From Bacilli bacterium (GTDB lineage Bacteria > Bacillota_I > Bacilli_A > RFN20 > CAG-826), in the NCBI GenBank assembly GCA_024408335.1, contig JAKSVB010000008.1, positions 12,967 to 76,966 of the forward strand: a stretch of 64,000 nt of DNA. Reading direction: 5' to 3'. Both the position numbers and the translations under genes were made by a program. Every line of letters begins with the position of its first letter. Position 1 is the first letter of the stretch. Shown here one piece after another: positions 1,062 to 37,324 of the stretch. The notes under the pieces are model-generated. The model worked only from the letters and a program-made list of their open reading frames with translations. It was not told where the DNA came from and did no database searches.

Positions 1062-1089
1062 TTGCTTCAGCATCAATTTCGGCTATAAT
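1062..1089 (+). promoter_or_regulatory. sigma-A promoter of the riboswitch-controlled operon
   Basis: TTGCTT-16 nt-TATAAT immediately upstream of the aptamer. Confidence 0.65.
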
Positions 1090-1090
1090 T

Positions 1091-1168
1091 TGGCTGTAAA
1101 AAGCAAACCTAGAGTAATCTAGCGACGCAAAACTATAGGGCCCTTCCGGGGCAGCCAGCTGCCATCGT
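1091..1168 (+). ncRNA. Cyclic-dinucleotide riboswitch, c-di-GMP-I/GEMM-I class, A20 variant
   Basis: GCAAACC-TAGA-GTAA-TCTAG-CGACGCAAA...TAGGG-CCC..GGGGCAGCCAGCTGCC matches GEMM-I consensus elements (GCAAAC, GNRA-capped P2, GACGCAAA, CAGCCAGYTGCC); A at 1102 precedes GCAAA. Confidence 0.85.
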
Positions 1169-1181
1169 GAGCTGGTTTTTT
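1153..1181 (+). terminator. Riboswitch expression-platform terminator overlapping the aptamer 3' strand
   Basis: GCCAGCT-9 nt loop-AGCTGGT followed by a T-run. Confidence 0.75.
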
Positions 1182-1203: not shown

Positions 1204-2049
1204 ATGGAAAGGAAGTACAAGGTCAAAGCGTTAGCACTTGTGTGTCTCAACGTTCTTTCGTGTACCACCATGTTCGTCTCCGTTACCGCCGCATGGTTTA
1301 CCACTGTCAAATCCGCTGAAGCTGCAGCCCAAGTCTTCAAAACACAAAGCGACGATAGGCTTGATGTATCTTTCGAGATCTATGACTACGACCTCGATAA
1401 CATGACTGGCAAAGTCGCAACGGATTCAATCACCAAAGATGATAAAGGAAGAGATGTTTTTGTCTCCAAATTCGCTCTCCCTCAATACGACTCTTTCATT
1501 CCAGAAAGAAACACATACAACAACAAGATCCTCAGAATCGAAATTCTTTCGAAGACGAGTATCGATTCGACTTCTAAATTCTCTTTGAGCATCCCTTGCT
1601 CAGGTTCTTTCCTTGACGGCGAGTCCAATGTCACAAGGAATATGTCCAACATCATCGGTTTCAAGTACTTCTTCAAGCATGAGCTCCCAAACCCAGCTTC
1701 TTTGAACGAATCATCTCCAGACTCAATATATGCTGGAGCGTATAGAGTCTTTAATGGCATCGAAGAATCTAGAAGTTATGTCACCATTAACGATGAACCT
1801 AATGGCAGCAAAACCGGAGGCAAGATCCAAGAAAACGCCATACTTTTCGATGAGTTAGATCTTGATGAGAATGCCTCGGATGCAGTCACTGTCATGTATC
1901 TTGAATACTTCTATAAGGAAGACCTCGTTGATTATTACTTCGACCACTCAACAGATAAGAAAGCGACCGCAGATGATCTTGCATCGTATTCGGTTTCTTT
2001 TGCTTGCGATATCGTAAAGCTTCAATTCAATGTAGGAGGTAATGACTAA
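1204..2049 (+). CDS. Exported protein with SipW-type signal peptide (TasA/CalY-like N-terminus)
   Basis: SD AAGGAG; hydrophobic N-terminus ending VTAAWFT. Confidence 0.7.
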   Translation: MERKYKVKALALVCLNVLSCTTMFVSVTAAWFTTVKSAEAAAQVFKTQSDDRLDVSFEIYDYDLDNMTGKVATDSITKDDKGRDVFVSKFALPQYDSFIPERNTYNNKILRIEILSKTSIDSTSKFSLSIPCSGSFLDGESNVTRNMSNIIGFKYFFKHELPNPASLNESSPDSIYAGAYRVFNGIEESRSYVTINDEPNGSKTGGKIQENAILFDELDLDENASDAVTVMYLEYFYKEDLVDYYFDHSTDKKATADDLASYSVSFACDIVKLQFNVGGND

Positions 2050-5000
2050 TGGACAAAGTCAAAAAGTCTAAGTTTACTCTCCTAATCACTTCTCTTTGCT
2101 CTGGAGCCCTTCTTCTTTCAAGCGGTTTCTCTTTAGCCTGGTTCTATAACGAAAAGAAGATCGATATCGATGATGGCCTTACTGGTTCAGTCCTTCAAAA
2201 GTATTTCCATAGCGGCACTGGCAAAAGCACAGATCCTTTCATCATCACCCGTCCTAGACATTATGAAAACATGGTCCTTCTCCACTACAACCTTGAAGGT
2301 TTTGCGGAGCATGAATTCTACTACGAAATCGGCACCGATATGGATGGTGACGGAGTCAAAGAAGTCTATAACTACAGCAAAGGCAGAGTCGAATACGTTA
2401 ATGGAAGCCCATACTCCACCACTCTAAACTGTGACCGTATTGCTTCTTTAGCGCCTCTTGGCTCAAAAGAGCTTCCTTTTAACTCCCACATTCAAGGTAA
2501 CGGCATGACCGTCTCAGGCTTCAAGATCGACGCGACTAGAGGCCAGTATTCAGATATCGGAATTTTTGGATTCGTTGGATATGGTACATGCTTAAATACA
2601 TATTTCAGCAATTTCGAGATCGATACGACGGGCACACATTACGATGAGCCTACCGATGAAGAATTGGCTTCAGGAACTGAGCACCTCCATAATGACGGCG
2701 CGATCCATATGGGCTATATCGCAGGTCACTTAGACCAAACAGAAAACTTCCAAAACGTCTATGTCAATAACTGCACCCTCAAAGGCACAACAAACGGACT
2801 TCACGTTAATAACTATGGTTATTATGGAAGAGCGGAACAAGACGCATTAGGCGGTGGTTTAGGCTATGGCCGTGACTACACTTTCTCTTTGAATTCGCAA
2901 TCCGTTTTCAATTACTTTAACTCGACCTATAACTCCATTAAAGACGATCAACTCGTTCTCAAAAACACAAGAGAAACAGCTGATGTAGCGCCTAATAAAG
3001 ATGGCGACAAAATCAAGAGAATGACCGCAAACGATCAAACAGCAGTCCCATTCTCTACAGCTGTTAGCCCTGATTCTGCAGCAGGCTCAGGAACGTATGT
3101 CATCAACAACGGTTATTCATTGTCCACTGCAGGTTATACCTCACCTGAGTTTGTTGAAAACAGACACGAATATAACGTTTACTACCAAGACAGGGAATAC
3201 GTTGATAAAGACGATGGAGATCATTCTCATAACGGACAAAACAAAATCCCTGCGAGCACACCACTCTATTATGACCACTCTTTAAAAGGCGCTGGCGAAG
3301 GTTTAATTGTCGACAATAGCGATCCAGAAAACAGAAAAGAATATCCAACCGCTTATTATTTTTGGGACTCCGCGTCTAACAGTTATAAATACGGCGAATC
3401 ATACGATAGAAAAGTCATAAAAGATGTTGATGTGTATCCTGTTAAGTTAACATTCAATGACTTTACGTCAGAGCCTTTCACATCAGCCGTCACCCCATCC
3501 ATAAATTCGCTTAACATTGATGCAAGACTGTTTTTTGATGATCCTGGAATCAACGGAAACGCTTATAACTTTATAGCGTTGACGGTGCATCCGACCATTT
3601 CATCAAATGGAATATCCCGTACAATAAAAATGAGTTTTGACCCAATTCAGTTATCAGATGTTCAAGAAGGCATCCATCATTTTTCAATATTGCTTTCGTT
3701 TACATTTGGCACTTGGTTCACCGGAACACATAGAAGCATCTATCTTTATCCAAAAGGAGGCTATGACGAAACGGCAAACACTTTGGAGCAAGACGCAATC
3801 ACCGTCAATGACGCTAAAGCAGGGAAACAGCTAAATCTAAGTGACAAAAGCGCTTTTTGGTTTAAAGATTACGGCGATATTTCAAACACAAAAACCCCTT
3901 ACAACGACTTAATCGACGCAAGCAAAAACCTAATCCGAAGAATCCCTTTCTCCTTCGAGGATTCAAAAGACATTATTCACGTTGACCCAAGAACATTTGA
4001 AACTCCACTTAAATATAAAGAAGTCATTGATGGGGTCGAGCAAGAAGAGTTTATCGAAGTCGGTGGTTTAACGTCGGATAGTCACACTAACTTCAACTAC
4101 GTTCCTGGTGTGGGCGAAAACCATGGGACTTGGAAATTGATAGTAGTTACAAGAGACGTCGTCGACAATCCAGACACGTTAGATTACTTCCCGTCCGAAG
4201 ACAGCATCATCTATGGGTCCGGATACCGGTCTCGAAACATAGACGTTGTTGGAGGAGGCGCCGAATTCTATTACCGCAAGATCGGCAACACAAACATAGC
4301 CGTACTAGCATTAAAATCCGAACAAACAGCAGGGCAAAGAGTTGGTTTGCCTCCAACAAAAGGCCAACCTTTCTATGCAAACGAGCAATGTTCAAGTTCA
4401 ATCGTCGTTTACCTCAAGAACACTTCGAACGCGATAGACGATAGAGATGACCTACTTGGTAAAATCTCATTTACCTATGTCCAGGTTTCTTTCTTTGGAA
4501 ACGGCATCGAAGTCGTTGATCCAACCTTCAAAAAAGGCGATGGTTTTATGTCGCTTAAGAGTGCTGGCACAAACACAGTTGAATCGAACGATGGAGGGTT
4601 CATCAACCTCACCCACACCATTTCTCTTGACCTTCTTGAAAGCGATGTCAAAAAGGTTGCGTACTGTGGCTTAGACGCTGATGGCAACGTTGTCGGAAGA
4701 TACACGAGTAGCGGCGTTTGGGATCCCCTAACATCAGAACCGCAAACAGATGAACAGAACGAAAGAGATCAAGCAAAGATTGATACATATGTTCTTGTTC
4801 TTGGAGGCCAATCGAATAACGCTAATAATGATACATGGATCACAAACATTGACTTCGAGTACAAAGCTCAAGATGGCTACGGCGGTACTTTCGGTTCAAT
4901 CGGATATCGCAGTGCTACAGATGAAAAAATCGAAAACACCATCCTTAACTACTATCTTTCCAACCCAACAGCACAAGGAAAGCCTGCTGACTTTAGCTAC

Positions 5001-5231
5001 TATGTTAACGTTAAATACGTGAGCAAAGATCCAGAGGATACCGAATATACAAAGAAGGGAAGATACTATATCACATGTTATAGCGATACCGATGTTAAGC
5101 TTAAGATATTCAACTATTACCCTGAGCTATACGATGTGTATGTGAAATCTGACCCCGACGGGGACTTTGTTCAAGCGACAGGTTCTAAACCAGAAGTGAC
5201 AATTGAAGCGTCAACGATACCAACGAGTTAG
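2049..5231 (+). CDS. Large exported protein with SipW-type signal and GLUG-like/beta-helical N-terminal region
   Basis: SLAWFY cleavage motif; SGTGKSTDPFII, IGIFGFVG and MGYIAGH motifs; TAATG coupling with upstream gene. Confidence 0.7.
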   Translation: MDKVKKSKFTLLITSLCSGALLLSSGFSLAWFYNEKKIDIDDGLTGSVLQKYFHSGTGKSTDPFIITRPRHYENMVLLHYNLEGFAEHEFYYEIGTDMDGDGVKEVYNYSKGRVEYVNGSPYSTTLNCDRIASLAPLGSKELPFNSHIQGNGMTVSGFKIDATRGQYSDIGIFGFVGYGTCLNTYFSNFEIDTTGTHYDEPTDEELASGTEHLHNDGAIHMGYIAGHLDQTENFQNVYVNNCTLKGTTNGLHVNNYGYYGRAEQDALGGGLGYGRDYTFSLNSQSVFNYFNSTYNSIKDDQLVLKNTRETADVAPNKDGDKIKRMTANDQTAVPFSTAVSPDSAAGSGTYVINNGYSLSTAGYTSPEFVENRHEYNVYYQDREYVDKDDGDHSHNGQNKIPASTPLYYDHSLKGAGEGLIVDNSDPENRKEYPTAYYFWDSASNSYKYGESYDRKVIKDVDVYPVKLTFNDFTSEPFTSAVTPSINSLNIDARLFFDDPGINGNAYNFIALTVHPTISSNGISRTIKMSFDPIQLSDVQEGIHHFSILLSFTFGTWFTGTHRSIYLYPKGGYDETANTLEQDAITVNDAKAGKQLNLSDKSAFWFKDYGDISNTKTPYNDLIDASKNLIRRIPFSFEDSKDIIHVDPRTFETPLKYKEVIDGVEQEEFIEVGGLTSDSHTNFNYVPGVGENHGTWKLIVVTRDVVDNPDTLDYFPSEDSIIYGSGYRSRNIDVVGGGAEFYYRKIGNTNIAVLALKSEQTAGQRVGLPPTKGQPFYANEQCSSSIVVYLKNTSNAIDDRDDLLGKISFTYVQVSFFGNGIEVVDPTFKKGDGFMSLKSAGTNTVESNDGGFINLTHTISLDLLESDVKKVAYCGLDADGNVVGRYTSSGVWDPLTSEPQTDEQNERDQAKIDTYVLVLGGQSNNANNDTWITNIDFEYKAQDGYGGTFGSIGYRSATDEKIENTILNYYLSNPTAQGKPADFSYYVNVKYVSKDPEDTEYTKKGRYYITCYSDTDVKLKIFNYYPELYDVYVKSDPDGDFVQATGSKPEVTIEASTIPTS

Positions 5232-5242
5232 AGGCTACGAAT

Positions 5243-5515
5243 ATGAAATCAAAGAAAATTATTTGGGGAGTTATTTTTGGTCTCGATATCGGCCTTACTC
5301 TCTTTTTCCTAATCACCACGATAATAATGCTTGCTACTATGCCTAGTAACATTGATATCGCGCTTAATTATTATCAAGACAATTACATTGGTTATCTTCA
5401 AAAGAACTCCAATATGTTTTTAGTGCTCATTGTCATACCGATGTTAGTTTTGTTTGTCGCTAACGCGGTAGGGTTAGTTATCTACGCTTTAAAGACAAGA
5501 AAGAGAACCGCGTAA
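5243..5515 (+). CDS. Small 2-TM membrane protein
   Basis: Two hydrophobic segments; GAGG SD; 11 nt downstream of the large exported protein. Confidence 0.7.
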   Translation: MKSKKIIWGVIFGLDIGLTLFFLITTIIMLATMPSNIDIALNYYQDNYIGYLQKNSNMFLVLIVIPMLVLFVANAVGLVIYALKTRKRTA

Positions 5516-5604: not shown

Positions 5605-5636
5605 AAAACTGCCTGACACTTTTATCAGGCAGCTTT
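5605..5636. terminator. 32-nt hairpin, boundary site 1 of the tandem cassettes
   Basis: AAAACTGCCTGA-CACTTTTA-TCAGGCAGCTTT between convergent genes. Confidence 0.7.
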
Positions 5637-5680: not shown

Positions 5681-6169
5681 CTATCCTGTGCACCCGTAAT
5701 AGACGGTGACATCGGAGTAGACTTGGTATCCATATGGAACTTCTTGGGTTCTTTCTGGATCAAAGCATATTTGCGCTATGAAATAATAACCATCGCCTTT
5801 GACTTGGTATTTGGGTTTAATCTTCCTAGCAAAATCTGAATCAACTTTAAGCACGGACCCTCTTGCGTATTCGATCGCGCAATCGAACCTAGGATCGCCC
5901 CATCCTCTGTCATTTACATAATAGGATTGATACACGGTAACTGTGTAGAAATCCTTGATTTCGGCAGGTTCGGAAGAAATCGAAATATTGGAACTTGAAG
6001 AATCCAACGTGGAAAAGGAAGAAGCCGTGTCTTCGCTTGAAGCGACCGAAGTGGAATGCTCCGATGGGTCGGTTGGGTCACTAACCGGCTTAGAGCAGGA
6101 CGCTAACGAAAAGATGATGGATGCCATCGCGGAACTTGCGATTATTGATCTAAATATTTCAAACCTCAT
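5681..6169 (-). CDS. Ser-rich lipoprotein A, copy 1 (chimeric signal peptide)
   Basis: Lipobox LASC; mature part near-identical to 8139-8612; N-terminus resembles that of 8618-9946. Confidence 0.75.
   Translation of the reverse strand: MRFEIFRSIIASSAMASIIFSLASCSKPVSDPTDPSEHSTSVASSEDTASSFSTLDSSSSNISISSEPAEIKDFYTVTVYQSYYVNDRGWGDPRFDCAIEYARGSVLKVDSDFARKIKPKYQVKGDGYYFIAQICFDPERTQEVPYGYQVYSDVTVYYGCTG
5682..6105. repeat. Direct repeat A copy 1 (copy 2 at 8140-8563)
   Basis: Base-by-base match at offset 2458; differences cluster in the C-terminal-coding part. Confidence 0.95.
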
Positions 6170-37168: not shown

Positions 37169-37243
37169 GGGCCGTTGGTCCAACGGTTATGATGCTAGCC
37201 TGTCACGCTTGAGACACGAGTTCGACTCTCGTACGGCCCGCCA
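37169..37243 (+). tRNA. tRNA-Asp (GTC)
   Basis: GGGCCGT/ACGGCCC acceptor stem, loop CTGTCAC, TTCGA, encoded CCA. Confidence 0.93.
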
Positions 37244-37250
37244 AATAACT

Positions 37251-37324
37251 GCAGGTGTAGTTCAATGGTAGAACATCAGCCTTCCAAGCTGAATACGCGG
37301 GTTCGATTCCCGTCACCTGCTCCA
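37251..37324 (+). tRNA. tRNA-Gly (TCC)
   Basis: GCAGGTG/CACCTGC acceptor stem, loop CTTCCAA, TTCGA, CCA. Confidence 0.96.

Follow-up and report, generated by a model that had tools for sequence, protein, structure and literature searches.

An A20-type GEMM-I riboswitch of predicted ON design ahead of a putative surface-protein operon in an uncultured gut Bacilli bacterium

The closest described relatives of the element reported here are the GEMM-Ib riboswitches of Geobacter, such as Gs1761/pgcA, Gm0970, and pilM, which combine the GEMM-I fold with adenine at position 20 while retaining A47 and C92. As reported in PMC6456294, Gs1761 is approximately 1200-fold selective, and the A20G substitution in the Gmet_0970 switch shifts it from cGAMP to c-di-GMP. 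The Geobacter elements are transcriptional ON switches, and PMC9262584 describes the pilM cGAMP switch as having a mutually exclusive aptamer/terminator design. Vc2 of Vibrio cholerae, which is captured by the same covariance model (RF01051), carries G20 and has a P1 helix, a long P3, and a GAAA loop with its receptor. Mutation G20A gives Vc2 the pocket found in the element described below, and the mutant binds c-di-GMP, via a stably protonated adenine, as well as cGAMP; in the same paper, 'a number of' natural GEMM-Ib riboswitches are stated to be bispecific (PMC6140456). Cd1 of Clostridioides difficile represents a GEMM-I switch from the Firmicutes that lacks a P1 helix, and its equivalent of G20 is G11, mutation of which to A or C (G11A and G11C) leaves c-di-GMP binding in place; in contrast to the Geobacter switches, it works as an OFF switch in which aptamer and terminator form side by side (PMC9262584). 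Given that an adenine permits c-di-GMP binding in both Vc2 G20A and Cd1 G11A, A20 alone is no predictor of cGAMP sensing.

The DNA analyzed here, referred to as the window, is the whole stretch of 64,000 nucleotides from an uncultured gut Bacilli bacterium, a host that differs in phylum from Geobacter. A cmscan search of the whole window yielded three Rfam matches in total, one to RF01051 (c-di-GMP-I) and two to tRNAs, the latter corresponding to two adjacent tRNA genes at 37169–37321 (+) with Rfam scores of 56.5 and 77.5 bits. The RF01051 match spans 1092–1166 (+), covers model positions 1–87 in full, and, at 48.6 bits (E = 1.9e-6), exceeds the gathering score of 35; RF01051 was still the top family of its clan for this interval in E-value mode. 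An earlier note, made from the sequence alone, had named here a GEMM-I aptamer with A at the specificity position, a GUAA tetraloop, and a very short P3, and each of these four points is borne out by the covariance match. The A lies at 1102, which cmscan aligns to position 11 of the model, and is unpaired, immediately 5′ of two G-C/C-G pairs formed by the GC of GCAAA with the GC of GACGC; by Vc2 numbering, we take it to be the equivalent of Vc2 G20. The canonical pocket base G20 is thus replaced by A, which places the element in the A20 subtype and leaves its family membership unaffected.

The remaining parts of the aptamer, all on the + strand, are those expected of the family. The P2 hairpin occupies 1108–1123, with the GUAA tetraloop at 1114–1117, and the short P3 hairpin, whose insert is 7 nt here versus 19 in the RF01051 model, occupies 1131–1160 with an AG bulge at 1153–1154. 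The core motifs GACGCAAA (1124–1131) and AGCCAG (1153–1158) are present along with the tetraloop. Within GACGCAAA, A1129 is placed by the cmscan alignment as the intercalating adenine, presumably the equivalent of A47 by Vc2 numbering, and its column is nearly invariant in an alignment of 75 related sequences. The base that pairs with the guanine of the ligand, C92, is assigned on the same assumption about numbering to the first C of GCC, C1162. Compared with Vc2, therefore, the window element has a GUAA loop instead of GAAA, a short P3 without a receptor, and a P1 that is cut to approximately one G-C pair. At the foot of P2, the window has a C/C mismatch (C1108/C1123), whereas position 1123 is G, restoring a C-G pair, in related-strain contigs of all four public runs (4/4). 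It should also be noted that a small local hairpin is possible at 1150–1163 (GGCAG-CCAG-CUGCC), which appears in the minimum free energy (MFE) fold of the aptamer alone and rivals both P3 and the terminator.

Comparison with related sequences indicates that the fold is more than chance. In 61 genomes (the host itself, 36 members of its genus, and 24 members of its order), RF01051 had 80 hits distributed over 29 genomes, and the 75 distinct sequences among them were aligned and scored against the Rfam structure supplemented with a trial P1. Paired cells amounted to 89.0%, compared with 77.0% in shuffles, and none of 500 shuffles reached either this value or the observed covariation score; when the partners were slid by 1–3 columns, pairing fell to 21–38%. 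Changes on both sides were found in 13 of the 21 pairs, including all six pairs of P2 and three of the six upper-P3 pairs, and helices 4 and 5, which belong to P3, were 92.7–96.7% paired. By contrast with these helices, the trial P1 holds in its innermost pair alone (columns 5–88: GC in 54, UA in 8, and unpaired in 13 of 75), as the two pairs outside it are formed by 42 and 26 of the 75 sequences, respectively. The window element is thus a genuine GEMM-I riboswitch of the A20 kind that has already been described.

The weakness of P1 goes together with the position of the promoter. Reading of the sequence places a −10 box, TATAAT, at 1084–1089 (+), ending 12 nt before A1102, and a −35-like hexamer, TTGCTT, at 1062–1067 (+), 16 nt 5′ of the −10 box; this pair scored 9/12 in our own promoter scan. 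A simple consensus scanner did not call the promoter at 1062–1089 because the −35 hexamer matches at only 3/6 positions. Of 79 related leaders with enough upstream sequence, 73 scored at least 8/12, and 43 of these 73 good promoters have 12–13 nt between the end of the −10 box and position 20. The transcription start usually lies approximately 7 nt from the −10 box, and the start of the window transcript is accordingly predicted at ~1095–1097, most simply at G1096, which is the G of the single closing pair (partner C1163). The proposal that transcription starts near 1096 and leaves an unusually short P1 agrees with this shared spacing, with the start itself remaining a prediction. Taken together, a start at G1096 and a −10 spacing common to the related switches make the short P1 a trait of the whole lineage; the window aptamer would begin ~6 nt before position 20 with almost no closing P1 helix, a difference from the Geobacter switches. 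In a public RNA run (X20) of a relative that is ~96% similar, contigs cover 1193–1509 and 2139–2400, although neither transcription nor the ends of a transcript can be read from contigs of this kind.

Downstream, the aptamer runs into a predicted intrinsic terminator at 1153–1181 (+), composed of a stem formed by 1153–1160 and 1170–1177, a 9-nt loop, and a T-run at 1176–1181. The hairpin is common to the MFE folds of 1092–1190, 1096–1186, and 1150–1186, and folded alone it has an energy of −11.4 kcal/mol, with an 8-bp stem that includes six strong pairs followed by T6; relative to shuffles, this energy is not unusual (z = −0.99). The simple scanner used for the window did not call it because the loop of 9 exceeds the limit of 8 in that program. 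The 5′ arm of the terminator is the 3′ strand of P3 (8 nt in common), which means that the aptamer and the terminator cannot coexist. The energy model assigns −26.6 kcal/mol to the terminator-containing fold and −9.7 to the aptamer secondary structure, a value that drops to −14.0 if the remaining sequence may fold as well; it follows that the switch is 'off' by default and that bound ligand should let transcription read through. The shared strand had been pointed out in the earlier note together with an ON switch in which the ligand prevents termination; the former reappears in the MFE folds, and the latter is well supported as a prediction from strand sharing, with termination itself inferred. 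The wiring would thus be that of the Geobacter switches and the opposite of Cd1, and the base that had to be introduced into Cd1 by mutation is natural here. Different expression platforms compete for the same aptamer strand in related leaders: the closest orthologue (h38, whose downstream protein is 63% identical) has by eye a different terminator-like hairpin and U-run over C92 and the 3′ flank, and in at least seven further leaders (h27, h42, h58, h59, h61, h67, and h74) the aptamer strand AGCCAGUUGCC pairs with the start-codon region.

The genes that follow are arranged as an operon on the + strand. A ribosome-binding site, AGGAG, at 1193–1197 lies 6 nt before the ATG at 1204, which opens gene 1 (1204–2049; 281 aa, predicted to be exported, with an N-terminal hydrophobic segment followed by A-W-F). 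Gene 2 (2049–5231; 1060 aa) has the same kind of N-terminus (SLAWF), gene 3 (5243–5515; 90 aa) encodes a small membrane protein, and a two-way terminator hairpin called on both strands (5609–5632) closes the operon, with the next gene (5681–6169) being convergent. No Pfam or NCBIfam family was found for any of the three proteins. Residues A30, W31, and F32 of gene 1 are invariant in 16/16 homologs, and the hydrophobic/A-W-F pattern recurs at the N-terminus of most genes located 3′ of the 80 related switches. These N-termini resemble, in our estimation, the signal peptides of TasA-type, SipW-dependent proteins; a candidate assignment to the SipW-cognate signal peptide family TIGR04088 was rejected, as N-terminal pieces of 30–90 aa from four proteins gave no NCBIfam match even at E up to 10. 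An Atlas lead points to PF12389 (Peptidase_M73) at 0.90, in 26% of members. The AlphaFold2 model of gene 1 is weak (mean pLDDT 63.5) and had no Foldseek match in the PDB at E ≤ 0.001. A search for related loci with a single protein returned one locus. The riboswitch probably switches on a surface-protein operon, with three exported or membrane proteins.

The host genome (1.35 Mb in 18 contigs, 96% complete) contains three GEMM-I copies, and the two others lead genes of a similar kind. One of them, RS1, also A20, stands at the head of a same-strand gene row of ~12 kb (G000:C15:64652-77079; L113 2653-15080). The products of this row include two EAL proteins, whose presence behind the switch suggests feedback on the dinucleotide pool, proteins that begin with the A-W-F type of N-terminus, and a SipW-like signal peptidase that matches weakly (23.3 bits, below the cut-off). 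The third A20 switch (G000:C12:88275-97198; L114) leads an operon built like that of the window, in which 332-aa and 1119-aa proteins with similar N-termini are followed by a 1474-aa protein.

While all three copies in the host genome have A at position 20, this base varies among relatives. The 63 hits of the same genus comprise 42 with A, 13 with G, and 8 with C, and the 17 hits from seven other genera comprise 5 with A, 12 with G, and none with C. At the level of genomes, 9 of the 21 genus members with hits have A only, 4 have A, C, and G, 3 have A and G, and 3 have A and C. The orthologues of the window switch in two other species (h38 and h13) are both A20, and A1102 is not among the differences listed for three DNA runs with contigs across the site. 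When genes behind switches were paired across genomes as orthologues at a protein identity of 50% or more (n = 42), position 20 was the same in 34 and flipped between A and G in 8. This conservation, together with the coexistence of A, G, and C types in single genomes, suggests that the identity of position 20 matters. Mutual information revealed no second-site signature separating A20 from G20 aptamers; the only differences are P3 length and one flanking column, both confounded by relatedness.

The C20 hits, which are absent from the host genome, form a group of their own (h20, h21, h23, h30, h33, h48, h49, and h55), with examples at L026 1501-1582 (−), L027 1501-1581 (+), and L031 1501-1580 (−). 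Seven of the eight read GGCGCAAAG instead of GACGCAAAG, and all eight share a promoter of the form TTGACA-17-[GC]ATAAT. A rescan of three of them (L026, L027, and L031) gave RF01051 as the family. C20 combined with GGCGCAAAG may be an undescribed pocket variant.

The enzymes that could supply the ligand were surveyed in the same genomes. Within the genus, a GGDEF domain accompanies GEMM-I in 21/21 switch carriers, two genomes have GGDEF only, and 14 have neither; SMODS/CD-NTase domains exceeded the cut-off in 0/61 genomes, with 0 hits in the host genome. A GGDEF enzyme is therefore the source of the ligand. Hypr enzymes, which make cGAMP, are recognized by Ser/Thr at the position of PleD D344 (GacA Ser348, nine residues after a conserved Asn) together with GGDE[F/Y], and their share of all GGDEF domains is reported to be 0.17%. 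The host genome has five GGDEF domains, three with an intact motif and two degenerate. The intact ones are an Asp-type enzyme (C13:33863-34966), a Val-type enzyme fused to Peripla_BP, a LacI-type sugar-binding domain (C13:18975-20828), and a Val-type C-terminal domain of a 2344-aa protein (C11:153025-160059), in which a degenerate GGDEF and an EAL domain are found as well; the Val was read by gapless alignment and is kept in the orthologues of G017 and G004. The degenerate domains read GAAEF with Ser and DMGDIF with Gly at the D344 position, so the Hypr signature, which joins Ser/Thr to an intact motif, is found in 0/5. It does occur in two other genomes of the genus, G027:C3 (Ser with RVGGDEF) and G006:C16 (Thr with RFGGDEF), but orthologues of these two enzymes were not found in the host genome (<35% identity). 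Across the 45 domains read from the genus and near relatives, in which Ser/Thr with GGDEF thus occurs in 2, the residue nine positions after the Asn is D in 8, E in 4, N in 8, K in 9, V in 4, S in 3, T in 1, and others in 8. The register of this residue is uncertain in several domains, some of which have D at +10, and given this variability and uncertainty no link between the GGDEF specificity residue and switch type is supportable across genomes. In addition, the host genome encodes five EAL domains and one HD_5, and neither PilZ nor GEMM-II was found in it. With an Asp-type GGDEF and five EAL domains but no PilZ or GEMM-II, the A20 switches are therefore the only recognized receptors of an otherwise complete c-di-GMP system.

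On this basis, the suggestion of the earlier note that the organism may use cGAMP or mixed signaling finds no support in that form: A20 is present, whereas the search of the 96% complete genome for cGAMP synthases turned up neither a CD-NTase of the DncV type nor a Hypr GGDEF, which also sets the locus apart from the Geobacter systems. By analogy with the characterized pockets, A20 makes cGAMP binding in vitro likely; the ligand in the cell is not given by it. That the window switch is a selective 3′,3′-cGAMP sensor of the Geobacter kind, fed by an atypical GGDEF of the lineage and turning on surface-protein operons, is unlikely, although a good deal recalls such a system. By Vc2 numbering, the triplet A20/A47/C92 is that of Geobacter GEMM-Ib, A20 predominates in the genus and is the sole type in the host, and the predicted wiring is ON, as in pilM; moreover, A20 is the selectivity determinant in the Geobacter switches. 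As for an enzyme, two of the three intact GGDEFs of the host have the conserved Val at the guanine-reading position, the two Ser/Thr enzymes in 45 domains compare with the 0.17% quoted for all GGDEF domains, and a synthase could have been missed in an assembly that is 96% complete. These points are countered by the fact that the only Ser at the specificity position in the host lies in the degenerate GAAEF domain, by the uncertain register of that residue, and by the A/G flips in 8/42 orthologous pairs, and no known receptor would be left for the Asp-type cyclase and the five EAL domains. Furthermore, the one switch of G031 (91% complete) is A20, and the one GGDEF found there is of the Asp type. 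This pairing and the GGDEF/EAL inventory of the host favor c-di-GMP, which we judge, at slightly better than even chances, to be the physiological ligand of the window switch, possibly with cross-binding of cGAMP alongside it.

Other readings give position 20 a different role. Perhaps A20 aptamers answer both c-di-GMP and cGAMP, with A, G, or C setting the thresholds or ligand mixtures to which individual operons respond. The behavior of Vc2 G20A and of the natural bispecific representatives, as reported in PMC6140456, fits such a scheme, as do the coexistence of the three types in single genomes and the lack of a second-site signature beyond P3 length and one flanking base; since it needs a source of cGAMP, of which none was found in the host genome, and since a genome with A20 only offers no contrast in thresholds, it is held to be rather improbable. 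Still more doubtful is the idea that the A/G/C split marks separate channels, each fed by GGDEFs diversified in base recognition (Asp, Asn, Ser/Thr, Val, and others), in which case the window switch would be the first cGAMP-responsive riboswitch system in the Firmicutes and C20 with GGCGCAAAG a further specificity. Finally, the aptamer could be real and the platform non-terminating, with control being translational or absent or the element being a decaying copy. The ordinary energy and long loop of the terminator, the C1108/C1123 mismatch that is C-G in related strains, and a score that is the lowest of the three GEMM-I copies of the host would be accounted for in this way. However, pocket bases and helices are all intact, six T directly follow six consecutive strong pairs, and the orthologues in two other species retain an A20 aptamer with a platform overlapping its 3′ part, which makes this the least credible of the explanations and a very improbable one. 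As a whole, the locus is best explained, with a confidence only a little above even, as a working A20 GEMM-I ON switch that is driven by c-di-GMP in the cell. In this explanation, the family match, the pocket bases, the covariation, and the incompatibility of the aptamer with the terminator are demonstrated, and the transcription start, termination, and the identity of the ligand are what we infer.

The switch would then operate as follows. Without ligand, the 3′ strand of P3 (1153–1160) would pair with 1170–1177, so that the terminator forms and transcription stops before the operon. Once a cyclic dinucleotide supplied by a GGDEF enzyme is bound, P3 would be held in the aptamer and the terminator blocked, allowing the genes at 1204–5515 to be transcribed. 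The dinucleotide in the cell would most probably be c-di-GMP, read with an affinity altered by A20, and 3′,3′-cGAMP would likely cross-bind in vitro.

A20-type GEMM-I is already known as a kind of switch, and what is new here is one further member. Its meaning depends on the ligand. Should the A20 switches of gut Bacilli respond to cGAMP, the range of cGAMP signaling through riboswitches would extend from Deltaproteobacteria of the Geobacter type to Gram-positive gut bacteria, and a new kind of cGAMP-making GGDEF would be indicated. If they read c-di-GMP, which is judged likelier, they would provide a natural case in which A20 tunes affinity while the ligand is unchanged, and a warning against annotating the ligand from one base. 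In either case, the organism offers a compact test bed, as its three switches stand beside three candidate cyclases and five EAL domains in a genome without PilZ; the pathway seems to act mainly through the switches, which would control exported surface proteins.
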